From positions 1 to 46,812 of the IMG/VR virus record IMGVR_UViG_3300029171_000014: 46,812 bases of DNA. One strand, 5' to 3'. Of the stretch, positions 1,681 to 45,058 are shown in pieces. Numbering within the stretch: the stretch's first letter is position 1; each line of letters opens with the position of its first letter. Source of the stretch: a virus (Duplodnaviria; Caudoviricetes). The notes below the pieces were generated by a model that saw only the letters and a list, made by a program, of their open reading frames with translations, made no database searches and was not told the DNA's origin. The translations under genes and the position numbers were made by a program.

Positions 1681-2383
1681 ATAATTTATTAAGTTCTTCT
1701 TGCGTCATCTCGACTCCATCTCCCAGCCACATACATGCTTCTGGGTCAAAGTTTTCAGTGTAGATATCTTGTCCATTTAAATGATCTATCTCATGAACAA
1801 ATATATGCCCATATCCACCATTTAATGTTTCTGTAATAGATTTGGATAGCTCTGGTTCTGAATCATTATTTTTTTGTGCCAGAGTTTGATAGGTTACTGT
1901 TATTTTATTAGGCCTAGGAATCATTTCTTTCATTTCTTTTGTGCTATGTGACATGCAACCTTCTTTCTTGAATACAGGTACTTTTGTTTTTAGGGTTATC
2001 ACTGGATTTATCACTACCATTCCATTTGGAAGAACAAAGAATCTTAGCGGATCCCTATCATCAATCTGAGGATGGGCAAGAGCAGCAATGCCACTGTATT
2101 TCCCACGAGGAAGGGAACACATTGCCACAAGGTCCTTACCGTCTGCAATGACTCTAGGCAAATCAGCTTCTGTTACCCATCTTGACTTTTTGTTGTGAGG
2201 AAGACAGTACCGTGCCGAAAGACGGGTAAATTCAGTAAGAATCTTTTGCCTTTTCTCTATCTCTTCAGGGGGGAGTTGTTCTTCTGTTTGTTTGGCAGTA
2301 GGTGCGGGGGTGCCTGGTCCGATATCTTTTAATACAATCTCTTCTGCTACATTAATCTGGAGAGTATCTGACTTGTTTGACAT
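1673..2383 (-). CDS. def: peptide deformylase
   Basis: motif 1 variant GIAALAHPQI, motif 2 EGCMS, motif 3 HEIDHLNG, plus VINP. Confidence 0.9.
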   Translation of the reverse strand: MSNKSDTLQINVAEEIVLKDIGPGTPAPTAKQTEEQLPPEEIEKRQKILTEFTRLSARYCLPHNKKSRWVTEADLPRVIADGKDLVAMCSLPRGKYSGIAALAHPQIDDRDPLRFFVLPNGMVVINPVITLKTKVPVFKKEGCMSHSTKEMKEMIPRPNKITVTYQTLAQKNNDSEPELSKSITETLNGGYGHIFVHEIDHLNGQDIYTENFDPEACMWLGDGVEMTQEELNKLYG

Positions 2384-6640: not shown

Positions 6641-6695
6641 AGGTACATCATACACTAATATATTTATGTTGTATATAGGTTATCCACTTTCATAA

Positions 6696-6784
6696 CGACC
6701 TGCCTCCGAGTTGAACGGAGAGGGGGTGCCCCACAAAAGCACCTCTTACGAGATGTAATTTCACCCCCAAAACCCATCAGGCCA
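6696..6784 (-). ncRNA. tRNA-like / tmRNA-TLD-like structured RNA
   Basis: acceptor-like stem (T)GGCCTG/CAGGTC(G), T-arm CTCCG-TTCAACT-CGGAG, helix GGGGGTG/CACCCCC enclosing a GTAA-tetraloop hairpin, no D-stem. Confidence 0.65.
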
Positions 6785-6789
6785 ATGGC

Positions 6790-6822
6790 GAGGACATATT
6801 TTCGTGCAGTCCTCATTGCACG
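6790..6822 (-). ncRNA. H-type pseudoknot
   Basis: S1 CGTGCA/TGCACG, S2 GAGGAC/GTCCTC, L1 AT, L3 AAAATAT. Confidence 0.55.
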
Positions 6823-6839
6823 CAAAGGTGAGATTTCGG

Positions 6840-7064
6840 TCAAACAAACGCTCCTTGCTGTTTTAGTGTAGCAGTTTCCTGCCTCAATTCCTCCATGGCG
6901 ACTTTTGCCACCAAATCCGCAAAATGACCCTCGTAGACAATAGGGTCATCGCAACCGAGGCAAGTAACCAAGATTTCCACGCACCCTTCGGAAGACACCG
7001 CAATGCGTTCAATTTCCGCATCCTGCTGGCACTGCTCGCAAGTCAGCATCAGTGGGTAGTACAT
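6840..7064 (-). CDS. zinc-ribbon microprotein
   Basis: SD GAGGAGG before MYYPLML; CEQC...CLGC. Confidence 0.65.
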   Translation of the reverse strand: MYYPLMLTCEQCQQDAEIERIAVSSEGCVEILVTCLGCDDPIVYEGHFADLVAKVAMEELRQETATLKQQGAFV

Positions 7065-7242
7065 CTTGCACCTCCTCAATCGGCTTGGAATGTCGCCACA
7101 TCCGCAGGTATCTCCCGTTGGAGATAAACGGCACGATCCGCTTCATTTGGACAGTTACAGTACAGCCCTCCTCGCAGGTAGTCCAAATTGCGATGGCGGA
7201 CTCCCTCATAGGGTGCATTGTATGACCTCTCGGGCATAGCAT
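7009..7242 (-). CDS. Cys/His microprotein
   Basis: SD AAAGGAGG, TAATG coupling; CPRGH...CEEGC. Confidence 0.55.
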   Translation of the reverse strand: MLCPRGHTMHPMRESAIAIWTTCEEGCTVTVQMKRIVPFISNGRYLRMWRHSKPIEEVQDVLPTDADLRAVPAGCGN

Positions 7243-7421
7243 TACAACCTCCTTTCGGCTCGGTCAAGCGGTGGGATTGCTCTCCGTGTGGACTTGAAGA
7301 TTTTGAACACATCAAAGCAGTTCTGACACTCCATAACCCAGAAATTCGGGTTAGAAATGTGGACATTGCAGATGGTGTGGTTACACGACGGACAAGTTCT
7401 CACCGCTTTGCCGATTTTCAT
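7242..7421 (-). CDS. zinc-ribbon microprotein
   Basis: SD GAGGAGG before MKIGK; CPSC...CQNC. Confidence 0.6.
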   Translation of the reverse strand: MKIGKAVRTCPSCNHTICNVHISNPNFWVMECQNCFDVFKIFKSTRRAIPPLDRAERRL

Positions 7422-7517: not shown

Positions 7518-7715
7518 TCACTTGCATTGCTCCGCAGTCGTGCATAGCTTCTCCTTTCGGGAGTGTAGTTCGTGCAGTGCCGCTTCCTCCTTAGCTTGCG
7601 GTTCACATTTACCGCATGCGGACTTACTCGTCCCCCAGAAGTACATAATGGCTTCTGTTTCCTTGCCAACCTCTTGGCAGTACGAACAGAGCGTGACCAA
7701 ATCGGTTATCGCCAA
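7518..7715 (-). CDS. zinc-finger microprotein
   Basis: SD AAAGGAGGTGA before TTG; CSYC...CGKC. Confidence 0.6.
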   Translation of the reverse strand: MAITDLVTLCSYCQEVGKETEAIMYFWGTSKSACGKCEPQAKEEAALHELHSRKEKLCTTAEQCK

Positions 7716-7748: not shown

Positions 7749-8132
7749 CTAGTGGGCGAGGTGTTTCCCTCTGATACTGGCCTCCAAACGCAATCTAGCG
7801 TATTCAGGGTCAACTTTCTTTCTCTCACTTATGTAGTGTTTATTACACCACCCCCTAGCACGAATCTTATCACCACAAATCTTACATTTTCCAGCGTGAT
7901 TTAATCTTCTATGATGCGTTTTACAAAACCATACTATCTCTTCTGGCTTTGAATAATCAGGATGATGGCGTTCTCCTAAATTAAAACACCCTTCAACTGA
8001 ACATTCATTTACTATGGGGTTTGCTTTCTTTGCTACAGCCAGAACACGCTGATAGCTCCTACGTTTTTCTATATTCTTCTCCGCCCAACGCCTATAGGCC
8101 TCCCTCCTGTTCTCTATATTTTTAGATGGCAT
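7749..8132 (-). CDS. HNH-like/zinc-finger DNA-binding protein
   Basis: CSVEGC, ERHHPDYSKP..VWFCKTHH (phage HNH-like), CKIC..ARGWCNKHY; start MPSKN 6 nt after TATAAT. Confidence 0.6.
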   Translation of the reverse strand: MPSKNIENRREAYRRWAEKNIEKRRSYQRVLAVAKKANPIVNECSVEGCFNLGERHHPDYSKPEEIVWFCKTHHRRLNHAGKCKICGDKIRARGWCNKHYISERKKVDPEYARLRLEASIRGKHLAH

Positions 8133-8138
8133 AAAGGC

Positions 8139-8167
8139 ATTATAACAAATCCCTAGCCCACTGTCCA
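8139..8167 (-). promoter_or_regulatory. promoter giving probable leaderless mRNA
   Basis: TGGACA-N17-TATAAT-N6-ATG. Confidence 0.6.
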
Positions 8168-29353: not shown

Positions 29354-29508
29354 GTATTTTTCATTCTATAAGACTTACACGAGCTAACATAGCAATAATT
29401 ACCATTCGGCCCGATTTCATCACCACACGCTCTACAATAATGTTTCCCATACATTGCGATTGGAGGATTATATCGGAACTTCTTCTTAAGCTTAAGTCTC
29501 CTTTTCAT
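29350..29508 (-). CDS. small zinc-ribbon protein, absent from ORF track
   Basis: manual translation MKRRLKLKKKFRYNPPIAMYGKHYCRACGDEIGPNGNYCYVSSCKSYRMKNT. Confidence 0.5.
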   Translation of the reverse strand: MKRRLKLKKKFRYNPPIAMYGKHYCRACGDEIGPNGNYCYVSSCKSYRMKNT

Positions 29509-30601
29509 CAAGTAGGTATTCGTTAGAGATAATCTTAAAACTAAACCTCTGCTCTGATCCCCTGATCATCTCTCGTTGCTCCTTCACTGGACGAATAACA
29601 ATACCCTCTCGTTTGGGACCCGCCCCCGTTTCAGGATTTGTGTTTAGATAAGTCACCCCCTCAGCCAGAGTAAGCAGATTGGGGACATTAGAGTAAAACT
29701 CATCAAGAATGAAGTGGGCATCAATTATTGGAACCATCTCTAGACCTAAATCATCACAGAACTGCTTCATTGAGTCATAATCAAGATATTCACCCTTCAC
29801 AAAGTCATAAACGTTGTAAACATAGAAATCCTGGCCTTTCAACTTTAATGGATTGCTTTGGATACCTTCACCAACCACCTCTCCTTGAACAGCAAAACCG
29901 TCTGGCAGATGCTCCTTAAGACTGTAACGATTGGCCAGCTTCCATAAGGTGTTACCTTCTGTTTCAACAAGATCAAGATTGCGGGAACAGACCCCCAAAA
30001 GACCGTCTTTCTTGTAAACAGTCATAGATGAACCATCTAGCTTCTCAGTAACATAAAACTCCTCACCCACATGGCGTTTAATAACCTCCTCCATGTTCTG
30101 GACTCGTTCTTCGTCAGTTTTAGGCAAGAAGCATGGGAAGTTGCCCTTAACTTGGCCTGAGAGTTGGGCGGGGATTGGGGCTTCATATTTGACGATGCCG
30201 AGAAGATCAGATACATCTGCCCCCACATCACTAAACTCAAAACTCAACTCAAAGCCAGATGGGTGGGGGAATAAACCCAAAGGCAACGCCAATCCTTGGC
30301 TAACCTGCCCCTTCAGCCGAATCGTTTTAAGTCGATACCCAGTGTATGTTTTACCTTCAACTGTCAACGTCTTAGGCTTTGAACCACGGGACATGAAAGC
30401 AAAAACTGGGCTATCTGCTGGCAAAAGACTGTCAATCTCAAAGTAAACGCATTTGTCTCCAACCTTAAACTCCCCCTTCTTAGCAACACACCACCATCCG
30501 TTTATCCTGACAGCCTCAATGGCATCTGCATTGGGGATAGCCTTTATCTCTGCTATTGATTGTATTGTAGCTAGTTGCCTCATATTTTTATCTTTCTCCA
30601 T
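29492..30601 (-). CDS. RNA ligase, DRB0094 family
   Basis: N-terminal RQLATI...NADAIE...VYFEIDS, PKTDEER.QN, motif I TEKLDGSS, QGE, REG.V, FKIISNEYL. Confidence 0.93.
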   Translation of the reverse strand: MEKDKNMRQLATIQSIAEIKAIPNADAIEAVRINGWWCVAKKGEFKVGDKCVYFEIDSLLPADSPVFAFMSRGSKPKTLTVEGKTYTGYRLKTIRLKGQVSQGLALPLGLFPHPSGFELSFEFSDVGADVSDLLGIVKYEAPIPAQLSGQVKGNFPCFLPKTDEERVQNMEEVIKRHVGEEFYVTEKLDGSSMTVYKKDGLLGVCSRNLDLVETEGNTLWKLANRYSLKEHLPDGFAVQGEVVGEGIQSNPLKLKGQDFYVYNVYDFVKGEYLDYDSMKQFCDDLGLEMVPIIDAHFILDEFYSNVPNLLTLAEGVTYLNTNPETGAGPKREGIVIRPVKEQREMIRGSEQRFSFKIISNEYLLDEKET

Positions 30602-35521: not shown

Positions 35522-35603
35522 TTTTAATATTAAAAGAGTAGAATTCGGCCCTATTAAGAAATTCTCAACTTATTTTTAGAGTTAAGATTATTTAATTCTA
35601 AAT

Positions 35604-35636
35604 AAAAAAGCCCCGCTTGTTAGGCGAGGCTCTTTT
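35604..35636 (-). terminator. intrinsic terminator between convergent units (possibly bidirectional)
   Basis: AGCCTCGC/GCGGGGCT stem followed by T run. Confidence 0.8.
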
Positions 35637-35637
35637 A

Positions 35638-36141
35638 TTAACGCTTTTTTGCTATTCCTATGTTGAATTTATTGCTGTCGTTTAGCTTTTTAATAATACT
35701 GTCTATGTCATCATTGATTTTGAAGTCTATCTCAAATTTTGGTTCTACTTCTTTAAACATTTTATTATTTATCATGTCTGTGTAGAATGTTTTAATTTCT
35801 TTTTTTGCTTTATTTAGTTCTGTTAATTTGAATTCTTTTGGGATATTGAATACTGTTTTTCTTTCTGTGTCTTCATATCTTATTCTACCTCTAATTTCTA
35901 GTTTATTTGTTTTTTTGTTATGTAGAATTGTTGCCATTAGATTTATGATTGTTTTGTATTGTGTAATATTTTTAATTGGTATAAATTCTAGGATTCCAAT
36001 GAACATATGTAATGGCATTATTTTTTCTGGATTCATTTCTATTACAGGTTTTGTTGGATTGTTTGTTATGTTTTTTAGTCTTTCTGGATTCATTTTATTT
36101 TCTGGTGAGATGTATGGTTGTTTTTCTTTTTTGGCTTTCAT
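35638..36141 (-). CDS. hypothetical protein
   Basis: coupled ORF in A-rich block. Confidence 0.65.
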   Translation of the reverse strand: MKAKKEKQPYISPENKMNPERLKNITNNPTKPVIEMNPEKIMPLHMFIGILEFIPIKNITQYKTIINLMATILHNKKTNKLEIRGRIRYEDTERKTVFNIPKEFKLTELNKAKKEIKTFYTDMINNKMFKEVEPKFEIDFKINDDIDSIIKKLNDSNKFNIGIAKKR

Positions 36142-36488
36142 ATTTGTAGTAGATTAAGTATTAATGCTTTCTTTTTAATTGCATATCCTATGTTTGTGTA
36201 GCTTTTTAACATGAGTTGTTTTGAGTTGAGAGTTTGGTATGAATCGTCTATCCAGTTTGTTATGTAGAATTTATCTTTTTTAGGTTCATAGAATATTTCT
36301 TTACGGCTTATTATTCCTTCTGTAAGAGTGATCATGTATTCATGATATCCATTAGCTAGGAAGGTCTTGAGTTCTTTTAAGTTCTTTATAATTTTGTATT
36401 TTGGTCTTGATTTCTTTTGCTTCTTCTTTGATATTGGTTTTGTTGTTTTGGTTAGTTTCTTTGTAACTTTTTTTGTTTTCTTTTGCAT
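36138..36488 (-). CDS. hypothetical phage protein
   Basis: SRK.I.Y....F.I.N.IDDS.Q.L...L....TNIG.AI.K.A. Confidence 0.65.
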   Translation of the reverse strand: MQKKTKKVTKKLTKTTKPISKKKQKKSRPKYKIIKNLKELKTFLANGYHEYMITLTEGIISRKEIFYEPKKDKFYITNWIDDSYQTLNSKQLMLKSYTNIGYAIKKKALILNLLQI

Positions 36489-36786
36489 AGTAGTTTATTA
36501 AGTTTTTAATTTGATCCCTAAGCTCTTTTGCCATTAGAATTTGTGAGGTTTTATTTTCTATTTCTAGTTTTATTAATTGATTCCAAAGTTCTATATGTTG
36601 TCCATCGTCTATTGTTCCAAGGTTGTAGGTTGTATTGCCCATTGGATTACATAAGGTTAGCATCCATTTATTGTTTTCAATTTTTTGGCATATGATCCAA
36701 TTGCTAGTTTGTGGAATTGTGTGGATTAGTATATTTTTTTCTCCATGTTTTGTTATGTGTGTTGCTAATCTATTAATGTTTTTCAT
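36352..36786 (-). CDS. hypothetical protein
   Basis: ATGA-coupled to VWA gene; 3' end overlaps next ORF. Confidence 0.55.
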   Translation of the reverse strand: MKNINRLATHITKHGEKNILIHTIPQTSNWIICQKIENNKWMLTLCNPMGNTTYNLGTIDDGQHIELWNQLIKLEIENKTSQILMAKELRDQIKNLINYYAKENKKSYKETNQNNKTNIKEEAKEIKTKIQNYKELKRTQDLPS

Positions 36787-38270
36787 GATTTTGTGGTTAT
36801 TGTTGCTTTAAGAATGTCTATGAAAGCTTTACCTATTAAGTTTGTGTCTTTTGTGTCTTTGATATTTATGTTTTTCTTTTTAGAAAAAGTATTATCCATG
36901 TCGTAGGTATCACTTCCTATTGTTATTCCAAGAGCTTCTATGTTTTGTTTTGTTGCTTCTTTGTGTGCTTCTTGCATATCTAATAGATTACTTTCTCCAT
37001 CTGTTAGGACTATCATTATTTTTCTTTCTGCTTTTGATTTAATAAGTTCTGTTGTACATGCTCTTATTGCTTTTCCAATATTTGTTCCATCAGTTTCTGC
37101 TTTGTTCATATTTTTGTCTGTTGCTATTTCTTCCCATTTTATTCTTTTTTTATTTAGTGTATTTAGGGTGTTGGCATTAGTTCCAAAGATAATTAGTGAT
37201 CTTTCTGTGTTGGCTATTTTTAATGCTTCTCCTACCATTTGTAGTGACGTTAGTGCGTAACTTCCTGCATTTTTTCTATTACTACCGCCTTGGAACATTG
37301 AGCCAGAAACATCAGAGGCAATGGCGAATGCATAGCTTTGGTTGCTTTTAATGATTCTTCTTCCAAATGGTCTTTTGTCGTTAAGTGTTTTGGTTCTTAT
37401 GAGTTTTTTTGTCATTAATTTACCGCTTCTATATCTTCCTCCGAATTCCATAGCATTGTTTCTTTTTAGGATTGTTCTTAGTTCTTTTCCTATTTTATTT
37501 GCTTGTTCTGATATGTTGTCTATGAATTCGATGTCTCTTCTGCTGTGTCCTGTATCTTTCCATCCTTTTCCTGCTTTTAAGCTGTTTATTATTTTTTGTT
37601 TTGTTGCTTCTTGTTCTGTGTCATTTTGTGCATTTCCATGCATTTTGCTTTCTGACATTTTCTTTTTATCTTCTTCTGTTGGTTGTCCTTTTTCTTTGAT
37701 TAATAGGTCTACAATAGCCTTACTTAATGGTAGAAGATCTTTAGTTTCTGGTCTTAGATATATTTCATCTTTTCTGCTAATCATTAAGTCTGCAATCTTT
37801 TCTCCTATTCTTTCATAATCTTCTGTTCCTAAAGCATATCCTCTGCCTTCAAATCTTGTTGCTCCGAACAGTAAAGCTTTTTCATATTCTGATACTGTGT
37901 CTAGTTTAGGTAGGATTTTTATAAGAGTGTCTAGGACTTCCATTTTGGTTGTGCTTAGAATTTCTCCTGCGTTTGGGTAGTCATTACTAATTATGCTTTC
38001 TATTGCAATGTCTTCTAGCATATTTAGTGTTGTTTCTGTTAGTTCTTTGTTTTCATTAGGGATATCTGTTTCTTTTGTGTAATGGATGTGGGCAATTTCA
38101 TGCAGAAGTAGTCCTAATATATGTTCCTCTGATAGGGTGTATATATCTTCTTTTTTGTAGAATATATCTCTGTTTTTTATGTTTGCTGCCCAACTTTTTC
38201 CTTCTATTACTTTTATTCTATGTTCTTTGGCTAACATTGTTGCGACCTTTTGAAATTCACTTAGTTTCAT
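36783..38270 (-). CDS. VWA domain protein with N-terminal HExxH (CobT-like)
   Basis: LHEIAH, NMLED..IE, MIDAS DVSGSM, GTN, VLTDGE. Confidence 0.88.
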   Translation of the reverse strand: MKLSEFQKVATMLAKEHRIKVIEGKSWAANIKNRDIFYKKEDIYTLSEEHILGLLLHEIAHIHYTKETDIPNENKELTETTLNMLEDIAIESIISNDYPNAGEILSTTKMEVLDTLIKILPKLDTVSEYEKALLFGATRFEGRGYALGTEDYERIGEKIADLMISRKDEIYLRPETKDLLPLSKAIVDLLIKEKGQPTEEDKKKMSESKMHGNAQNDTEQEATKQKIINSLKAGKGWKDTGHSRRDIEFIDNISEQANKIGKELRTILKRNNAMEFGGRYRSGKLMTKKLIRTKTLNDKRPFGRRIIKSNQSYAFAIASDVSGSMFQGGSNRKNAGSYALTSLQMVGEALKIANTERSLIIFGTNANTLNTLNKKRIKWEEIATDKNMNKAETDGTNIGKAIRACTTELIKSKAERKIMIVLTDGESNLLDMQEAHKEATKQNIEALGITIGSDTYDMDNTFSKKKNINIKDTKDTNLIGKAFIDILKATITTKS

Positions 38271-39559
38271 AGTGTTGTATTAGTTTGAGTAATTTGAGAG
38301 ATGTCATTAATTATTTGTGCTGTTTTGGTGTTCATTATTTTGTCTATTTCTTTTGAGTGAATGATTATTCCTTTTTTTCCTTTGTTTGGACCTGCTGTAA
38401 TTTCTATAGTACTTCCTATGTTGTTGCCCTTGCCTGTTGCTTCTGTTGTGAAGATCTCTTCCTCTTCTTCGTAGTAGATACCTGTGATCTTAAACTCGTC
38501 ACCCTTGATTGCGGTTTCTTTTTGGTTTTCAGAGATGATGTCTCCTATCTTTTTTGTGATTATTTCTTGGTATTTTGCTTTGTTATCTGTCAAGCTGTAG
38601 TAGGCATTGTTTATATCCTTTTCCATTATGTAGGTATTGTTGATGTGTAGATCTTTAATGTCGTTTATTTGTGTTCTTATGTTATTTGCTTGCTTCTTTG
38701 TTGGTAAGTGAAGTTTTGCTATTGTTTTTATAGCTTTGTTGTCTTCTTTATCAAGTTTATTGGCAAATGCTAGACCTAGTGCTTCTGTTGGTTCCATGTT
38801 TTGAGCCAATCTTAATGTGTTGAGGATGTCTCTTGTGTTGATTTCATATTCTGATGTTCCTAGTTCTTTTGCTTCTCTTGTTTGGTTAGCTAGGCTTACA
38901 AGCTTTATAGCTAGTTCTGACTTGCTTATAGCATTTCCTAGGTGGTGTTCTATTATTTCTAGTTCTGTCTTTTCTGGTGGGAATTCTGTGTTGATACAGA
39001 TGGCAAATCTAGACAGAAGTGCTTTGTTCATTTCTTTTGTTCCTGCATACTCTGGAGGATTGCAGGTTGCAAATAATCTGAAGTTTGGATGCTTATAGAC
39101 TATTTCTTTGTTATCTTTTTCATTTAGGACTAAGTAACCGTCGTCGTCTAAGATTGACTGTAGTACAAAGAGAACTTCTGGTAATGCAGCATTAATCTCA
39201 TCAAGTACTAGAATTTCTCCATTACGCATTGCTTCTGTTAGGATTCCATCAACCCAATATGTGCCTTTGTCGTTAATCAGAAGTCTGCCAACTAGTTCGT
39301 CGGCTGTTGTTCCTCCGTTTAGGTTAACTCTTCTTAGTCCTTGTTTTGTTTGACTTGCTACAAATCTAATTGCTGATGTCTTTCCTGTTCCTGATTCTCC
39401 CATTATTAGCACTGGTAGATTATCTCTGATTCCTATTGCTATTGTTTTTAGAATTTCTCCATGATCAATGAATTTGCCTCCGTTTTGTGGGATATATAGG
39501 CTTTTTCCATCCTGTATTGGTACTTCTATTTTTCCATATTTTACTGTTTTAGTTTGCAT
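38267..39559 (-). CDS. MoxR-family AAA+ ATPase (CbbQ/NirQ/CobS-like)
   Basis: GESGTGKT, WVDG.L..A, LDEINAA, HPNFRLFAT.NP..YAGT, ALLSRF, TRD. Confidence 0.92.
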   Translation of the reverse strand: MQTKTVKYGKIEVPIQDGKSLYIPQNGGKFIDHGEILKTIAIGIRDNLPVLIMGESGTGKTSAIRFVASQTKQGLRRVNLNGGTTADELVGRLLINDKGTYWVDGILTEAMRNGEILVLDEINAALPEVLFVLQSILDDDGYLVLNEKDNKEIVYKHPNFRLFATCNPPEYAGTKEMNKALLSRFAICINTEFPPEKTELEIIEHHLGNAISKSELAIKLVSLANQTREAKELGTSEYEINTRDILNTLRLAQNMEPTEALGLAFANKLDKEDNKAIKTIAKLHLPTKKQANNIRTQINDIKDLHINNTYIMEKDINNAYYSLTDNKAKYQEIITKKIGDIISENQKETAIKGDEFKITGIYYEEEEEIFTTEATGKGNNIGSTIEITAGPNKGKKGIIIHSKEIDKIMNTKTAQIINDISQITQTNTTL

Positions 39560-40355
39560 GACTTTTATTCTTAGTTTTATTAATTATTTCTCCTGAGTAA
39601 TTTAGTTTTTTTGCTAGTTTAAGCATTCTACCTTTTCCATATTTAGCTATTAGTTCTTTTTCTTTATTGGCTTTTTGTGTTTTTTTCTCTAATTCTATTG
39701 CTTTTGTTTCTGTGGTTATTTTGGGGTTATTATTTAGTAAGTCTTCTATTTTTTCTTCTGGTGATTCTTGTGGTGTTGTTTCTTGGGATAATGAGAATGG
39801 AGAGATTATTCTTTTGTTGTTTGTCTCATTGTTTATTAAGTCTTTTTGTATTTCTTCTATTGATACTTCTATTAATCCTAGTGTTTCTATTAGAATCATT
39901 TTTGAAACTTCTGTATTTGGAGTATTGTCTTCTATGAGCTTCATTACTGTTTTTGTATTGTTCCCATCTTTTGGAACTTCTAGGTAGGTTATTGGATTGT
40001 TTTCTTTTGTTTTGTATTTGATGTTGTCTTCTGGTGTTAATAGTTTAGTTCCTGCCATTTCTGCAAAATTTCTGAGTTCTTTTATTAGTTCTTTTTCATT
40101 CTCTATTGGGTATTCTGCAATATTTGCTCCATGTCCTTTACAGAATCCTTCTGGTTTTATATGGCAGATTGTAGCTCTTGCTATTGCTTTGTTATCTTTT
40201 CTGATTACGGTGAAGATGTTGTGTATTGTTTTTTTATTGTCTGTGTCTTCAATGTCGAAGGATAAGGCCATTGCAAGGGTTTCGTCTTTTTGTAATTTTG
40301 GTGTATTGAGTTTTTGAAATGGTGAGAACCATTTTTGTGGATATAGTTGAGTCAT
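39549..40355 (-). CDS. hypothetical protein
   Basis: 268-aa coupled ORF. Confidence 0.65.
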   Translation of the reverse strand: MTQLYPQKWFSPFQKLNTPKLQKDETLAMALSFDIEDTDNKKTIHNIFTVIRKDNKAIARATICHIKPEGFCKGHGANIAEYPIENEKELIKELRNFAEMAGTKLLTPEDNIKYKTKENNPITYLEVPKDGNNTKTVMKLIEDNTPNTEVSKMILIETLGLIEVSIEEIQKDLINNETNNKRIISPFSLSQETTPQESPEEKIEDLLNNNPKITTETKAIELEKKTQKANKEKELIAKYGKGRMLKLAKKLNYSGEIINKTKNKSHAN

Positions 40356-40765
40356 TTTATTAATTTATTAGGTATTAATGTGACTATTGCTTCATATTCA
40401 AAGTATCCTTCTAGGACTTCAAATGATACTTTGTATTTTGATTCGTAGTTTTTACCTAATAATTCTGTTATTTTGTCGTAAGCAATTTCTGTTGCTTTGT
40501 TAATTGATTTAGCCCAGTTATAATTTGGACTTCCCTCATCCGCTGTTGGTCCAATTTCTTCTATATCTATTCCTAGGTTTATTATTATTGATCCCTTGAT
40601 TTGCTTCTTGTATCCAGTATCAAGATCGTCATAGCTTTGGTTATAGTTAGCATTGTTGTAATGAGCGTCTTCATCTCTGTCAAAGAGAGAGTAGTTTCTT
40701 ACTGGGGGTAGGTATTCTTTTGGTGTTGTGTCTTTGCTTAATGTCATTTCTCTTATTCCTTTCAT
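40352..40765 (-). CDS. hypothetical protein
   Basis: coupled ORF. Confidence 0.65.
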   Translation of the reverse strand: MKGIREMTLSKDTTPKEYLPPVRNYSLFDRDEDAHYNNANYNQSYDDLDTGYKKQIKGSIIINLGIDIEEIGPTADEGSPNYNWAKSINKATEIAYDKITELLGKNYESKYKVSFEVLEGYFEYEAIVTLIPNKLIK

Positions 40766-40777
40766 GTTTTGTTTTTA

Positions 40778-41107
40778 TTATTTTATTAATGCTATTTCTT
40801 CTCCTAAGCCACCTGCGATTCGTAGTAGTGCTGATAATGATATATATCCATTTCTTTCTGCTCTTGTGATTGTTCCTTGAGACATTCTTATTTTTGATGC
40901 CAGTTCTCTTTGTGAGTATCCTAGTGCTATTCGTTTGTTTTTTATTTGCATTTGTATTTTTTCTATATTTGTGAGCAGTGGTTCATCAATTTGTTGATTA
41001 GGGCCTGTGTAGTTTCTTTGTGTTGGTTGAGATAGGTTAATTGGTTCTATTGGTTGATTTGATTTTTCTTTTAATGAAGTTAGGCTGTTTAATAGATTTA
41101 TATTCAT
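40778..41107 (-). CDS. XRE-family HTH regulator
   Basis: IKNKRIALGYSQRELASKIRMSQGTITRAERNG.ISL..L.RIA..LG. Confidence 0.9.
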   Translation of the reverse strand: MNINLLNSLTSLKEKSNQPIEPINLSQPTQRNYTGPNQQIDEPLLTNIEKIQMQIKNKRIALGYSQRELASKIRMSQGTITRAERNGYISLSALLRIAGGLGEEIALIK

Positions 41108-41110
41108 GTT

Positions 41111-41599
41111 TTAATAATTGTTAATTGTGTTTTTAATTATTTTTCCATTTATTATTGTTTCTGTTCCTTTGAATCTCATGCCTGGTTCATTATAATAATT
41201 TTGAAATTTTAGTTTTGGGAATTGTTTTGATGTGTTTATTAACCATTGTGTTGGTGGAGACCATGGTGTGTCGTACTCATAGATTATTTTTGTTTTACCG
41301 TTTTTGTAGTTTGTTTGTGTTGGTTTTGTCATGCTGTCTTTGTATGGACCCCATTTGCATCCCCAATTAGCTATTTGCCAAGAATGCCAATCAGTATGCC
41401 CATATTTCTTTATTAGGTTTGCTTGTTTGATTTTACTTAGATTACTTGGGGATTGTGTATTTGCTAGTTCATCTGGCATTGGGATAGTTGTTTGGAAGTT
41501 TAGTGGTTCGTCTTTGCTTTTCCATACAGTTTCTTTGAATCTAATTATTTCTTTAGTTTTACCTAGGATCGTGAGTTTGTTCATGCAGTAATTAGCCAT
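41111..41599 (-). CDS. DUF1281/YubB-like ferredoxin-fold protein
   Basis: MANYC.N.L.I.G, W..W...NWG.KW, TPWSPP, YNEPG. Confidence 0.75.
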   Translation of the reverse strand: MANYCMNKLTILGKTKEIIRFKETVWKSKDEPLNFQTTIPMPDELANTQSPSNLSKIKQANLIKKYGHTDWHSWQIANWGCKWGPYKDSMTKPTQTNYKNGKTKIIYEYDTPWSPPTQWLINTSKQFPKLKFQNYYNEPGMRFKGTETIINGKIIKNTINNY

Positions 41600-41603
41600 A
41601 TGA

Positions 41604-41819
41604 TTATTGTTTGATTAATCCTTGTTTTAATAATTCTTGGATAATTCGACCAAACCATCCTTGTAGTTGATTAGTTAATTTTTTGTCGTGGATATACTGC
41701 CAAGCAGCTATTCTTTCGTTTTCTGTGGCATTTTCTCCTTCACAGAATCCTTCTGCTATTGCTGTTGCCATGTATGGGGTTAGTTTTTTATATGCTTTAG
41801 TGTTTCTTATGTTTTTCAT
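41604..41819 (-). CDS. hypothetical phage protein
   Basis: A..IAEGF...IAAWQYI.D.....LQGWFGR....L...GLI. Confidence 0.7.
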   Translation of the reverse strand: MKNIRNTKAYKKLTPYMATAIAEGFCEGENATENERIAAWQYIHDKKLTNQLQGWFGRIIQELLKQGLIKQ

Positions 41820-42061
41820 GTATTAGTTTTGATTAATTTAGCCATAGCTTCGACTTTTATATCTTTGACATATACATCTCCATATTCACCTTCTGGAACT
41901 ATGGGAGTTTTGACTAAGCAGAACCATCTGGCATTAGGTTTATTGTCGTCTAATTGCCACTTTTTTAGTATGTGCCATTCCCAGTCTGGGAGAATTGGAG
42001 AATTGCTCCAGATCTCATATGGATTATCTGCGGGTCTTGTTTTTGATTGTGTGTTTTTCAT
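41816..42061 (-). CDS. hypothetical phage protein
   Basis: KTR..DNPY..W...WEW..LK.WQ...ARWFC.VK.P....EYGD.Y. Confidence 0.7.
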   Translation of the reverse strand: MKNTQSKTRPADNPYEIWSNSPILPDWEWHILKKWQLDDNKPNARWFCLVKTPIVPEGEYGDVYVKDIKVEAMAKLIKTNT

Positions 42062-42224
42062 TTGGTTTGTCTATACTTAATAATACTTCAAAGCAGTCTT
42101 CGCATTCTATTGAGATATTTGCTACTTGTTTCCCTTTTCCGTATTTAACACAAGCAATATTATGTCCTATGTGTCTTCTTAGTCTTTTGAATTCTAGTTT
42201 GTCTTTTTTGTTTAGGTTTTGCAT
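42024..42224 (-). CDS. small Zn-binding protein
   Basis: HIGHNI.C..YG.....N..IECEDC.EVL. Confidence 0.7.
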   Translation of the reverse strand: MQNLNKKDKLEFKRLRRHIGHNIACVKYGKGKQVANISIECEDCFEVLLSIDKPNEKHTIKNKTRR

Positions 42225-42387
42225 ATTGATTTAGATAAGTTGCTAATGTTTTCACTTCGTGGAATATATGTTTCCCCCTTGGTCTTTCCATTTCTTCCCA
42301 ATTCTTTTCTTCGTCGTGATACATGTATTCAGTGATTTTGGCTATTGCTTCTAATAGCTTGTAGGTCATTGGATATAGTTTTTTCAT
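42160..42387 (-). CDS. hypothetical phage protein
   Basis: Y...DE.K.WEE......HIF. Confidence 0.6.
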   Translation of the reverse strand: MKKLYPMTYKLLEAIAKITEYMYHDEEKNWEEMERPRGKHIFHEVKTLATYLNQYAKPKQKRQTRIQKTKKTHRT

Positions 42388-42391
42388 ATTC

Positions 42392-42592
42392 TTATTCTTT
42401 AGTTTTGTTAAACTCTACAATGTGATGGCTGTCTTTTTCTATATTTCGTATGCCTTCTTTGGCTTTTTGTAGTCTGAATCTGGCTTTTTGTTTTTTTAGT
42501 ATTGCTTTTGTTTCATTTTTGTCTGCTTCTATTTTTTCTAATAGAGCTATTCTGAGTTCATTTATTTTTTCTTCTACTTCTTTGGTTGTCAT
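42392..42592 (-). CDS. small coiled-coil protein
   Basis: coupled ORF. Confidence 0.6.
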   Translation of the reverse strand: MTTKEVEEKINELRIALLEKIEADKNETKAILKKQKARFRLQKAKEGIRNIEKDSHHIVEFNKTKE

Positions 42593-42954
42593 AGTTTTGA
42601 TTCTGCTTTAAAGAATTTAGCTTGTGCTTTTGTAATGCCACAATCTATTTCAACTTTCATACAACGACCTTCTGTATTGAAGTAACCGTAGACTGGATAG
42701 AATCCATCTCCATAACCTGAAGAGAATGTAACAGCTAAGCCGGGATGGCCTTTCTTGTAATTGATTTGGTGTTTTTCTACTTGATTAGCTATACAGATGG
42801 CTGGATATGAGAAGGGGTGTTTGCTTGGTTTGAAGTCTCCTGTTTTGTCTAATCGGATTTCTTCGTTCCACCATTCTGAGTTTATGTAGCAAGGGTCTGT
42901 AATTATTAATTGGCCTGAATCAACTCCAACGTGACCTAATAGTTTCTTTTTCAT
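42589..42954 (-). CDS. DUF4241-like protein
   Basis: G.VGVDSGQL.I.DPCY; SGYGDG.YPVY. Confidence 0.7.
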   Translation of the reverse strand: MKKKLLGHVGVDSGQLIITDPCYINSEWWNEEIRLDKTGDFKPSKHPFSYPAICIANQVEKHQINYKKGHPGLAVTFSSGYGDGFYPVYGYFNTEGRCMKVEIDCGITKAQAKFFKAESKL

Positions 42955-43148
42955 TGTGTTTGTTCTATTTCTTTAGTAATGTCTTCTTCGCATTCTGGGC
43001 AGAAATGTTCTATATCTTCCCAATCTCCATAGTCTTTTGTGTCGAATTCACCGTTGGATATTGTGAAGTCTCCAGAGTTGCTGACTGATGCTGTAAATCT
43101 ACTGTATTCTATTTCTTTTTTGCAGTGTAGGCATATTATTGATTTCAT
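42951..43148 (-). CDS. zinc-ribbon protein
   Basis: CLHC...CPEC. Confidence 0.7.
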   Translation of the reverse strand: MKSIICLHCKKEIEYSRFTASVSNSGDFTISNGEFDTKDYGDWEDIEHFCPECEEDITKEIEQTQ

Positions 43149-43634
43149 TTAAGTTGATTTATTTTGTCTAATAATGTTGTTTCTTTTATTTCTGCAAGAG
43201 ATACCACAGTAATTGTTATTAAGTTTATATTGTCTTGGATATATAAGCTTAGGTTTATTACATAAGGCACATTTGATTTTTATTTTTTGGATAGTTGGTG
43301 GACCTTTTCCAAGACGGCTTATTTTTCCCCAATGGAGCTTTAATCTGGCCATTGTTTGAGCTGATCGTTTGTAGTTGTGATTTCTGCCTTTAGTGAAGCG
43401 ATATTTAGCTCCTTTTTGTAGGTTTTTGAGTGTTCCATTGGCGATTACGTGACTTCTCATTTTGTCTCTGTATTCTTCTGTGACAATACCTCGTTTTACA
43501 TCAAGGCTGTGTTTCTCTTTATAGTTTCTTGCTAGTATTTGATGTTTTTGCCAAGCATGAGATAAGGGTTTTTTGAAGTATTTGCCACATTCTAGGCATT
43601 TGATTTTGCCGTTTTGAATGTATGGCGTTTTCAT
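43149..43634 (-). CDS. Ros/MucR-like zinc-finger protein with extra C-terminal Zn finger
   Basis: IKCLECGKYFK...H....H......YK..H.L; CALC...YC...C. Confidence 0.7.
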   Translation of the reverse strand: MKTPYIQNGKIKCLECGKYFKKPLSHAWQKHQILARNYKEKHSLDVKRGIVTEEYRDKMRSHVIANGTLKNLQKGAKYRFTKGRNHNYKRSAQTMARLKLHWGKISRLGKGPPTIQKIKIKCALCNKPKLIYPRQYKLNNNYCGISCRNKRNNIIRQNKST

Positions 43635-44146
43635 TTGAGATTATTAATTTTGTCTAATAATGGTTTTATATCTGATAGTGGAGTTAGACCTAATTTGATG
43701 TCTAGCATGAAATCTTCTATTTCTTCTTCCATTTTATTTATTTCTGGTAATTTTTCTGTTAATTTTAGTATTTCTTGTTGTAGTATTTCTGTTAAGTTAT
43801 GTGGTAAGCTTCTTATATAACTAGAGTAGTCGTTAAGATCTATTTGAATTATTTTTGTTTGTGTCTTTATTTCTTTGTTTAGTTTTATAAATTCTTGTTT
43901 AAGTGTTATTGCTTTTTGATGTAATTCTTTGATTTTTAATGCATATTTTTGATTTGTTTTAGATAGTAGTTTATCTTTGATTTCTGATTCTTTGTCTTTT
44001 AGTTTGTTGTGTAGTGTTCTTTCAATTAAATCTATATCTCTTTGAAGTGGGATTTTAGGTTTTTTTAGAGTTTGTGGGTTGTTTATTGCTTCTTCTGTTT
44101 CTTGATTCTTAGTTAGGCTTTCTTTGATCTGTTCTAAGTTTTTCAT
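43631..44146 (-). CDS. coiled-coil protein
   Basis: heptad-rich coupled ORF. Confidence 0.6.
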   Translation of the reverse strand: MKNLEQIKESLTKNQETEEAINNPQTLKKPKIPLQRDIDLIERTLHNKLKDKESEIKDKLLSKTNQKYALKIKELHQKAITLKQEFIKLNKEIKTQTKIIQIDLNDYSSYIRSLPHNLTEILQQEILKLTEKLPEINKMEEEIEDFMLDIKLGLTPLSDIKPLLDKINNLK

Positions 44147-44307
44147 TTAATTTTAGTATTTAGATATTCTATTAAGTAGTGAGCATATGAAGTTAATATT
44201 TTTTGTTTTTCAAAGAGAAAGATATCTTTTTTTAATTTAATTGCCATTCTGTATGTTTTTGTTAGTTTTTTGATTTTATCTTTGTTGAATGTAATTTTAT
44301 TGTTCAT
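44143..44307 (-). CDS. small phage protein, absent from ORF track
   Basis: manual translation MNNKITFNKDKIKKLTKTYRMAIKLKKDIFLFEKQKILTSYAHYLIEYLNTKIK; ATGA-coupled both ends. Confidence 0.7.
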   Translation of the reverse strand: MNNKITFNKDKIKKLTKTYRMAIKLKKDIFLFEKQKILTSYAHYLIEYLNTKIK

Positions 44308-44522
44308 TGGTTTATCTTTATAATTTTATTACAATCTTCAATTGTTAGAGTATTAGAGATTCTAACTGATTTTATGCATTCTGAGTATTCTTTTTGATAT
44401 TGTTGGGTTGGAGTTAATTCTGAAGTAAGTTTTTTATCAATGGTTATCCAGAAAGATATTGTGCTAATTCCAGCAATCATTCCAAAGATAAGGATTAGAG
44501 CTGATTTTTGATTTGTAGTCAT
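44304..44522 (-). CDS. small membrane protein
   Basis: N-terminal TM helix, Cys pair. Confidence 0.6.
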   Translation of the reverse strand: MTTNQKSALILIFGMIAGISTISFWITIDKKLTSELTPTQQYQKEYSECIKSVRISNTLTIEDCNKIIKINQ

Positions 44523-44830
44523 GTTGATGTTAGGTTATTTATTAATTCTTCAGCCGTGTCGAATCTGGCTGGATCTTCTTTGTATTTGCCACCATAAGCC
44601 TCGTATTTGCCAAATGAGACCATTCCTTTGATGATTGATACATCTCCTACGTGAATATGCCATTCTCCTGAAGGGTAATAGCCTAGTATTTCTTTGATTT
44701 TGCCATTTCCTTCTAAGGCTCCGAGATGTTTGTTTATGGTGTAGGCTATATTATTAGCCTTAAGTAGAGTTTCTAGTTCTGACATGTCGTCATTGAATTC
44801 AGGGGAGTTGAGTTCTTCTTGTGTTCTCAT
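44519..44830 (-). CDS. hypothetical phage protein
   Basis: coupled ORF. Confidence 0.65.
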   Translation of the reverse strand: MRTQEELNSPEFNDDMSELETLLKANNIAYTINKHLGALEGNGKIKEILGYYPSGEWHIHVGDVSIIKGMVSFGKYEAYGGKYKEDPARFDTAEELINNLTST

Positions 44831-44836
44831 ATGGTT

Positions 44837-45058
44837 TTAATATTGTTTAGCGAACTCTTTACAGCGGTTTAAGTAACCATGTTGTTTGTCTTGGTTAGTA
44901 ATTTGATAGAAGCAGTCTAGTTCTATTTGATATTCAGCTATCTTTTGGTTTAATTCGTGTTCTGCTTGGTAGGTTGTATTTATTCTTGTTATTATTAATA
45001 AGAATATTATGGCTAATATTCCTATATATAGGTGGAAGAATGATGAGTCTTGTTTCAT
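44837..45058 (-). CDS. small membrane protein
   Basis: N-terminal TM helix, Cys pair. Confidence 0.6.
   Translation of the reverse strand: MKQDSSFFHLYIGILAIIFLLIITRINTTYQAEHELNQKIAEYQIELDCFYQITNQDKQHGYLNRCKEFAKQY

Follow-up and report, generated by a model that had tools for sequence, protein, structure and literature searches.

A predicted pseudoknot and an anticodon-less, tRNA-shaped RNA fold at the end of a phage microprotein cassette

The cassette and the folds behind it

In this article, we discuss two adjoining RNA folds predicted in an uncultured phage and the small genes that they follow. The window, meaning the whole stretch of DNA analysed, is the 46,812-nt virus record IMGVR_UViG_3300029171_000014 (G000 in our set of relatives), which comes from an aquatic metagenome and has a CheckV completeness of 47%; all features of the locus lie on its minus strand. 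Reading in that direction, a sigma70-type promoter-like site (8139..8167; 11/12 match, with an extended -10 TG) precedes an ORF for an HNH-like endonuclease (7749..8132; PHROG 2340, E 7e-9), and then comes a cassette of four small ORFs spanning 7715-6840, with products of 65 aa (7518..7715), 59 aa (7242..7421), 53 aa (7076..7237) and 74 aa (6840..7064), each led by a strong Shine-Dalgarno (SD) site, of -11.1, -10.7, -10.5 and -12.5 kcal/mol, respectively. CxxC motifs are found in three of these products, the 65-aa, 59-aa and 74-aa ones, and the latter two have two motifs each. Judged by its sequence, the promoter-like site is likely to be the start of the cassette transcript; the ATG of the HNH-like ORF stands 7 nt past the -10 box, and the mRNA of that ORF is predicted to be leaderless.

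The cassette has a G+C content of 51% vs 40% in its flanks, and its ORFs have a GC3 of 0.52-0.63 compared with 0.31-0.34 for two core genes. Its SD sites (-10.5 to -12.5) are also out of keeping with the group, given that sites at or below -6 precede 3 of the 36 long ORFs of the record and, in five related phages, 0/49, 0/49, 1/31, 0/40 and 1/40 (2/209). By these sequence measures the cassette looks foreign, an SD-led block among phages that otherwise avoid such sites. Its proteins, including the 59-aa and 74-aa ones, are singletons in the databases searched: searches for direct relatives at the DNA and protein level returned nothing or the record itself, and in the ESM Atlas the matches were limited to unnamed clusters at 0.94 and to zinc-ribbon-like folds with a TM of ~0.5. 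Two assemblies carry the same DNA without a difference, but they may be the record's own source. A separate compositional feature of the record is a sharp drop to 29-34% G+C with an extreme AT skew of ~-0.4 at 35600-45000, a block of minus-strand genes that includes an AAA+/vWA pair.

Starting 17 nt past the stop of the last cassette gene is an H-type pseudoknot (6790..6822), in which the first stem pairs 6822-6817 with 6808-6803 (6 bp, all Watson-Crick), the second pairs 6814-6809 with 6795-6790 (6 bp Watson-Crick, or 7 when a U·G is counted), and the loops measure 2 nt (L1), 0 (L2) and an A-rich 7 nt (L3). A linker of 6 nt (6784..6789) is all that separates it from an 87-nt domain (6697..6783) that is predicted to take the shape of a tRNA. 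This domain opens with an acceptor-like helix (6783-6778/6702-6697; a G-C, a G·U and then four Watson-Crick pairs) and continues through a stemless 9-nt D-loop analogue containing GG (6769..6777) into a segment that replaces the anticodon arm (6722..6768), where a 7-bp Watson-Crick helix (6768-6762/6728-6722) has no anticodon loop and encloses a 6-bp hairpin with a GUAA loop (6755-6740). A T arm follows (6703..6721), with a 5-bp stem and a canonical 7-nt loop at 6720-6704; its stem can be extended by U6721·G6703, giving together with the acceptor helix a stack of 6+6 = 12 bp. The 3' end is a G (position 73 in this 12-bp register) and then UUA (6693..6696), with no encoded CCA, and the domain has neither the D stem nor the 7-nt anticodon loop on a 5-bp stem of a canonical tRNA.

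Folded alone, the 89 nt from 6784 to 6696 reach exactly this structure as their minimum free energy, from acceptor through stemless D loop, 7-bp helix and hairpin to T arm, with pair probabilities of at least 0.96 for the acceptor (0.99-1.0), the 7-bp helix and the 5-bp T stem and of 0.77-0.92 for the GUAA hairpin; the z-score is -2.2, and 12 of 500 shuffled sequences are equally stable. For the whole 127 nt z is only -1.5, from a folding program that cannot model pseudoknots. The acceptor pairing falls to 0.68 in a 250-nt context and to 0.37 once the pseudoknot strands are blocked, because the linker can alternatively pair with the D loop in a competing hairpin. As for chance, the pseudoknot is the only one of its 6+6 Watson-Crick H-type in the entire record, compared with 0.45 per record in 20 block-shuffled records, and canonical T arms number two in the record against 0.1 per shuffled one; the other T-arm-like hairpin (10870-10854, minus strand) is isolated inside a small ORF and has no acceptor helix. 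For a pseudoknot and a T arm within 150 nt of each other, the joint chance is ~7e-5 per record by analytic estimate, and the co-occurrence of the pseudoknot and the tRNA-shaped fold is non-random.

The initial annotation of this DNA had described a 6+6-bp H-type pseudoknot on the minus strand, an acceptor-like stem with a canonical T arm, and an unpaired D region with a GNRA-bearing 7-bp helix in place of the anticodon arm, and each of these parts was recovered, so as a predicted fold the element is real and well formed. It was also right that neither an anticodon loop nor a CCA is encoded, and its statement that no tag ORF is present needs a qualification: a frame of 59 codons opening with TTG (6664..6843), a doubtful gene, overlaps the whole RNA. 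Just downstream, a weak promoter-like site (6647..6675, 9/12) lies ahead of a ribbon-helix-helix gene (6640-6488). Terminator-like matches (4 found vs 2.1 expected) occur at 7485-7464 and on the inner hairpin, which scores as such together with its U run.

Pseudoknots after cassette genes in related phages

For comparison we used five whole records of related phages (G001-G005, 75-102 kb), together with metagenome loci and six fragments; among the 120 proteins listed for the SbcC-like gene of the record, the relatives are 34-55% identical to it. A host search gave no GTDB match, and the SbcC of G001 carries one NCBI label, that of a 'Bacilli bacterium' MAG. The interval between RuvC and SbcC that holds the element is 7 kb long in the record and <1 kb in L007, G001 and G002; in L008 it spans 3.9 kb and contains five tRNAs, SD-led ORFs and a pseudoknot. 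Similar SD-led CxxC microproteins, unrelated in sequence to those of the record, are encoded in the relatives, adjoining tRNA genes or tRNA-like RNAs. Such SD-led cassettes, mostly with CxxC motifs and mostly beside tRNAs or tRNA-like RNAs, were located at L037:1892-2361, L032:574-1061, L040:16142-16509, L055:2028-2597 and L008:5714-6077.

A pseudoknot of the same geometry follows a small SD-led ORF at 50 nt in G001 (L032:819), at ~28 nt in G002 (L040:16538) and at 4 nt in L008 (L008:6081). Four of the six cassette regions hold such a pseudoknot, with shuffled sequences yielding 0-2 per 300 each, and two do not. In 1.38 Mb of strand sequence, GC-rich pseudoknots were found at seven distinct sites (10 raw rows), of which four stand 4-50 nt past a cassette ORF, a figure to be read knowing that the descriptor was tuned after those four cases were known and that the script flagged only the record and G001 as near a cassette, G002 and L008 being assigned by eye. 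The four share a common geometry and their sequences do not align; in G001, another ORF comes after the pseudoknot. A looser descriptor finds three chance pseudoknots in 60 kb, with one look-alike inside a nuclease gene. Pseudoknots that were left uncounted are those of L253 (in the nuclease ORF), L252 (antisense in the RtcB gene), L036 (antisense to a tRNA), L054, L249 and L050, and the one in L054 may be a plain terminator.

What comes after the pseudoknot also differs. The 10 nt that follow it contain 5-7 U in the three relatives vs 2 in the record, and because of these U-rich stretches the second pseudoknot stem of the relatives may, on sequence, double as a terminator. Behind the pseudoknots of G002 and L008 there is no tRNA-like domain, a U-rich tract standing there instead. 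The G002 stretch (L040:16518-16565, plus strand) begins with a 14-nt near-perfect complement of the 16S 3' tail, with no start codon behind, and runs on into the H-type pseudoknot and the U tract.

Relation to tRNAs, mini-tmRNAs and other tRNA-like RNAs

As to the family of the element, Rfam searches at the gathering threshold and at E up to 10 gave no tmRNA, tRNA or Y RNA match, and ARAGORN in its default mode reported nothing relevant at the element; the two checks, both suggested in the initial annotation, assign it to no known family. A structure model built from the single sequence (R1) found no homologue in the relatives or the pattern loci (L055 lay outside that search), and its weak matches to mini-tmRNAs (E 0.11 and 0.36) and to one antisense stretch (E 0.003) are not evidence of homology. 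With no sequence relative found, the element offers no covariation, which was another check proposed. A relaxed ARAGORN run made 169 tRNA calls in 57 sequences, mostly spurious; its tRNA-Thr can be formed only with mismatched stems and an 'intron' of 9 nt, its permuted tmRNA with a 19-aa tag places the tag frame inside the 74-aa gene with the remark 'tag not identified', and we reject both. An 8-bp hairpin (6936-6911, minus strand) in the 74-aa ORF, before the tmRNA-resume-like sequence which that run picked, was judged to be chance. Hammerhead and HDV-like ribozyme cores, compared by eye, do not fit.

The initial annotation had pointed to a G3-U70 pair in one register of the acceptor. That pair exists, confined to a strained 13-bp register in which the first pair is a U1·G72 wobble and to which G2-C71 is likewise limited, at a cost of three substitutions and one insertion relative to the tRNA-like domain (TLD) of tmRNA. 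In the 12-bp register G6783-C6697 becomes 1-72, the G·U becomes 2-71, U6784 is position -1 and a G stands at 73, at the cost of one mismatch (A7·G66) and an acceptor of only 6 bp. Judged by sequence, the register with G1-C72, G2·U71 and G73 fits better than the 13-bp one. A search with both acceptor hexamers and one extra base, a pattern that itself favours the 12-bp register, returned 37 loci, 12 of them with a T stem, and among them are phage tRNA-Asp (G73) and tRNA-Leu genes in exactly the 12-bp register; from their sequences, these loci show the register to be a natural one but do not prove it correct. Several loci of this search hold tRNA-shaped phage RNAs that have no anticodon, at L182:599-678, L184:689-595 (also L210) and L187:599-683, and L182, L184 and L187 have no Rfam match at E 0.1. 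A further RNA that departs from the normal anticodon arm lies at L193:599-690, where the Rfam match is confined to a T-arm fragment, and L184 may hold a pseudoknot within the replaced arm.

The likeness to the TLD of tmRNA, from which the initial annotation had derived a decoy for SmpB or AlaRS, calls for a comparison with the tag-less, TLD-only mini-tmRNAs, a type for which Mao et al. 2009 is cited in the literature. Relative G002 encodes a true member, an 84-nt tag-less tmRNA in a tRNA cluster (L039:4493-4410, minus strand; RF00023, 60.1 bits), and is the one among the five relatives with RF00023 above the cut-off. A pattern scan of IMG/VR gave at least 120 loci (L058-L177) among ~650 matching stretches by estimate; 94 of the 120 have a T stem and an acceptor, and once duplicates are taken out, along with one mis-registered and two false rows, 74 unique sequences remain. 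G1-C72, G2-C71, G3·U70 and A73 are present in 74/74, and a subset of 31 sequences shows compensatory change at 17 of 22 pairs, a strong covariation.

Like this family, the element has a canonical T arm, a D loop with no stem, and a helix that replaces the anticodon arm. In the G3·U70 register its first pair is U1·G72 where all 74 have G1-C72, an extra G follows its T stem, and its discriminator is a U (or, in the other register, a G) where all 74 have A73. Where the family has its D-loop 3' motif and GAC connector, the region contacted by SmpB, the element has G-C pairs and a linker of 1 nt. The search pattern itself contained the two motifs, and their frequency among the 74 is not independent, the independent check being RF00023, which gives the G002 member its 60.1 bits and the element no score at all. 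The family HMM finds no match in the element at E 100. A full-structure model (R3, from 31 of the 74 sequences) gives it 13.1 bits (E 0.67) vs 19.0 for an ordinary tRNA and 68 for two held-out members; the element is nonetheless the best match of this model in the whole record, at full length and in the G3·U70 register, and 10 of the 74 members have an acceptor strand closely similar to its own. A pseudoknot with a T arm was found in 0 of 79 mini-tmRNA neighbourhoods, and a search for an SmpB gene found none in the five relatives. The element also lacks the marks of a full-length tmRNA, namely a tag reading frame and a ring of pseudoknots between the strands of helix 2, as well as the gene order of a permuted one; its D loop and T arm stand 47 nt apart, and Rfam gives no match. 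On this sequence evidence the element is not a mini-tmRNA, which sets aside the decoy claim as one of membership; descent from the family is possible, and a retained mini-tmRNA function would be unlikely.

Three further RNAs of the relatives may be mentioned here. The stretch downstream of the G002 mini-tmRNA (L039:~4405-4310, minus strand) has a pseudoknot and a resume-like site inside a helix of 7 bp, and it may be the coding piece of a tmRNA, now separated. G002 also has a second D-armless tRNA-like RNA directly before its microprotein cassette (L040:16051-16119, plus strand; 18.9 bits on the mini-tmRNA model), and in G004 a minimal RNA (L049:~1968-2010, plus strand) consists of a 7-bp acceptor, a 9-10-nt linker and a T arm, with no anticodon arm. 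The published record of the TLD-only type includes phage DS6A, whose RNA is reported to inhibit tmRNA (PMC4131195, PMC11915505), and PMC11915505 counts nine 'standard, no CDS' tmRNA sequences, next to the at least 74 unique mini-tmRNAs collected here.

Among named RNAs, the closest class on fold modelling is a descriptive one, the 'tRNA-like stable RNA with unknown functions' annotated as species 1 RNA (rnaC) of phage T4 and as RNA1 and RNA2 of phage T5 (NC_000866.4, NC_005859.1), which, like the element, are phage-encoded and fold with an acceptor-like terminal helix, a canonical 3' T arm and no normal anticodon loop; T4 rnaC likewise has no encoded CCA. However, they share no sequence homology with the element (R1 at most 9.3 bits, E 0.8 at best), are larger (125-144 nt vs 87 nt), sit among tRNA genes and have no H-type pseudoknot inside the annotated RNA by the same descriptor, the T5 pair keeps the D stem that the element lacks, and their expression is documented, whereas the element is known here from sequence alone. 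The TLD-only tmRNAs of DS6A and of uncultured phages agree with the element in the order of parts, with a stemless GG-bearing D loop, a helix with an inner hairpin and a T arm, but the element differs in its upstream pseudoknot, in the G1-C72, A73 and D-loop/connector motifs that it lacks, and in the extra G after its T stem.

Farther afield, the 3' ends of MALAT1 and NEAT1 form a triple helix followed by the anticodon-less mascRNA or menRNA, which RNase P cuts off. The element may work in a similar way, its tRNA-like domain, which has no anticodon, coming right after a potentially protective structure, but those RNAs are eukaryotic, their structure is a triple helix rather than an H-type pseudoknot, and there is no homology. 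Plant viruses place an upstream pseudoknot domain before a tRNA-like structure, again a pseudoknot and then a tRNA mimic at an RNA 3' end; these are ends of RNA genomes with an encoded CCA and a pseudoknotted acceptor, whereas the element is a gene of a DNA phage and its acceptor is a plain helix. The bacterial Y RNA YrlA is circularly permuted with respect to tRNA and carries a Ro60-binding stem. It too is a tRNA mimic without an anticodon, but in the element the parts follow one another as they do in tRNA, and Rfam gives no Y RNA match at E up to 10, so the likeness to Y RNAs drawn in the initial annotation does not amount to membership. The parts of the element are thus of known kinds (tRNA-like phage RNAs and H-type pseudoknots), and what is new is their combination and cassette setting: in the part of the literature covered, we met no description of a pseudoknot and an anticodon-less tRNA-like domain ending an SD-led microprotein cassette, nor of the recurrence of the pseudoknot after microprotein genes in the clade.

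A possible 3'-end unit and its rivals

The observations to be explained are two folds that occur together non-randomly, their position at the end of the cassette, and a pseudoknot geometry that recurs after similar genes, and our preferred reading, to which we give a probability of about 0.4, is that the element is a 3'-end processing unit of the cassette mRNA, in which RNase P cuts off a tRNA-like RNA of the T4/T5 type and the pseudoknot caps the mRNA. A single transcript from the promoter at 8167-8139 (start ~8132) would reach the element, where host RNase P would recognise the 12-bp acceptor/T stack, the T loop, G+1-C72 and U-1 and would cut between 6784 and 6783, with U6784 as the predicted -1 base. 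This would release the ~87-nt tRNA-like stable RNA, to be trimmed and given a CCA after G73, and would leave the cassette mRNA with the pseudoknot and a 6-nt tail, a presumed shield against 3'-to-5' exonucleases, which a pseudoknot at a 3' end would hinder. In the relatives, the U-rich tract would make the same 3' end by termination, the tRNA-like domain taking its place in the record. The released RNA could possibly also bind host or defence proteins that recognise the acceptor or the elbow.

Several features of an RNase P substrate are present in the sequence and fold, namely a ~12-bp acceptor/T stack (with the caveat of one U·G and of its being metastable in longer context), a T-loop elbow, G+1-C72 and U-1, but the 3' RCCA is not, a G and then UUA standing there. 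According to PMC11143913, RNase P is an enzyme anchoring on the T-loop elbow and G+1/C+72, often with U-1, and cutting acceptor+T-arm model substrates, non-tRNA phage RNAs and plant-virus tRNA-like structures; the same paper notes that a missing RCCA lowers efficiency, and also that T4 tRNAs have no encoded CCA and that T4 precursors can do without RCCA. Three features weaken the RNase P model, namely that RCCA is missing, that the acceptor is short and that a hairpin competes with it. The initial annotation had called the element a tRNA mimic and, alternatively, a 3'-terminal processing or stability element of the microprotein transcript; both descriptions are consistent with the anatomy and with the context in relatives.

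Instead of being cut, the whole ~127 nt could act as one stand-alone RNA, its pseudoknot blocking 5'-to-3' decay and its body serving as a decoy for readers of the elbow or acceptor, e.g., tRNA-targeting defence toxins. The 6-nt distance between the modules suits this idea, and so do the other reduced tRNA-like RNAs in relatives (G002 L040:16053-16119; G004 L049:~1968-2010). The record also has an RNA ligase gene (29492-30601, minus strand; TIGR02306, above cut-off) and a relative has an RtcB-family gene (L252:7639-6476, minus strand), which from their sequences point to RNA repair in the clade and are consistent with tRNA-damage conflicts. We nevertheless regard a stand-alone decoy as unlikely: the pseudoknots of G002 and L008 occur with a U-rich tract and no tRNA-like domain behind them, and the pairing of pseudoknot and T arm is absent from all 79 mini-tmRNA neighbourhoods.

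Rather unlikely, too, is a non-functional relic, a decayed tRNA or mini-tmRNA gene that happens to lie beside an independent pseudoknot or terminator-type element. Such a relic would suit a singleton whose acceptor is weak in context and matches tRNA-Asp/Leu acceptors with one mismatch, and tRNA genes do lie in the syntenic L008 interval. However, every pair of the 7-bp helix and of the 5-bp T stem is Watson-Crick, the T loop has its canonical form, and the D and anticodon arms have given way to a different, well-paired structure, which random decay would not be expected to produce; the one tRNA call, the tRNA-Thr of the relaxed ARAGORN run, depends on mismatched stems and comes from a run full of false calls.

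Quite unlikely is a diverged TLD-only mini-tmRNA that would still titrate SmpB or be alanylated. The arrangement of its parts, which runs as in the family from the stemless D loop and a helix through AAA and a small hairpin to the T arm, an acceptor strand much like that of 10/74 members, the full-length best match in the record, the true member in G002 and the reported inhibition of tmRNA by the DS6A RNA (PMC4131195, PMC11915505) speak for it; the missing G1-C72 and A73, the motifs replaced by G-C pairs, the extra G, a score of 13.1 bits below the 19.0 of a plain tRNA, and the empty HMM (E 100) and Rfam tmRNA (E 10) searches speak against it. Finally, regulation by the folds of the overlapping 59-aa ORF (TTG at 6843, coupled to the upstream stop), e.g., by stalling or attenuation, is very improbable, for although its SD of -7.8 is normally spaced, with -7 being reached by 6% of background starts, and only 281 of 5000 shuffles keep the frame open, it has no family match, its SD sits inside the coding sequence upstream and does not match the strength of the four cassette SD sites, the upstream stop has no slippery site before it, an in-frame stop falls within the pseudoknot, and the canonical T arm would be left unexplained. 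Readthrough or -1 frameshifting at the upstream stop was rejected, as a second in-frame stop follows and no slippery site precedes.

The preferred reading, 3'-end processing of the cassette mRNA, can be extended by analogy to the clade, although in this wider form it is doubtful: phages of ~100 kb that avoid SD sites would carry SD-led cassettes for zinc-ribbon microproteins, whose mRNA ends would be capped by pseudoknots through termination or, here, through RNase P, and the released mimic would be a decoy for defences that target the acceptor. If the preferred reading is wrong, the element is another odd tRNA derivative missed by ARAGORN and Rfam. The SD-led cassettes in an SD-avoiding clade are a separate lead. 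The compactness of the element makes the formation or stabilisation of mRNA 3' ends testable as an explanation for anticodon-less phage RNAs, with natural controls at hand in relatives that carry a pseudoknot and U tract without the tRNA domain, or a true mini-tmRNA. If the reading is true, it would provide a bacterial-virus parallel of tRNA-punctuated 3'-end capping, together with a short, portable part for stabilising mRNA.
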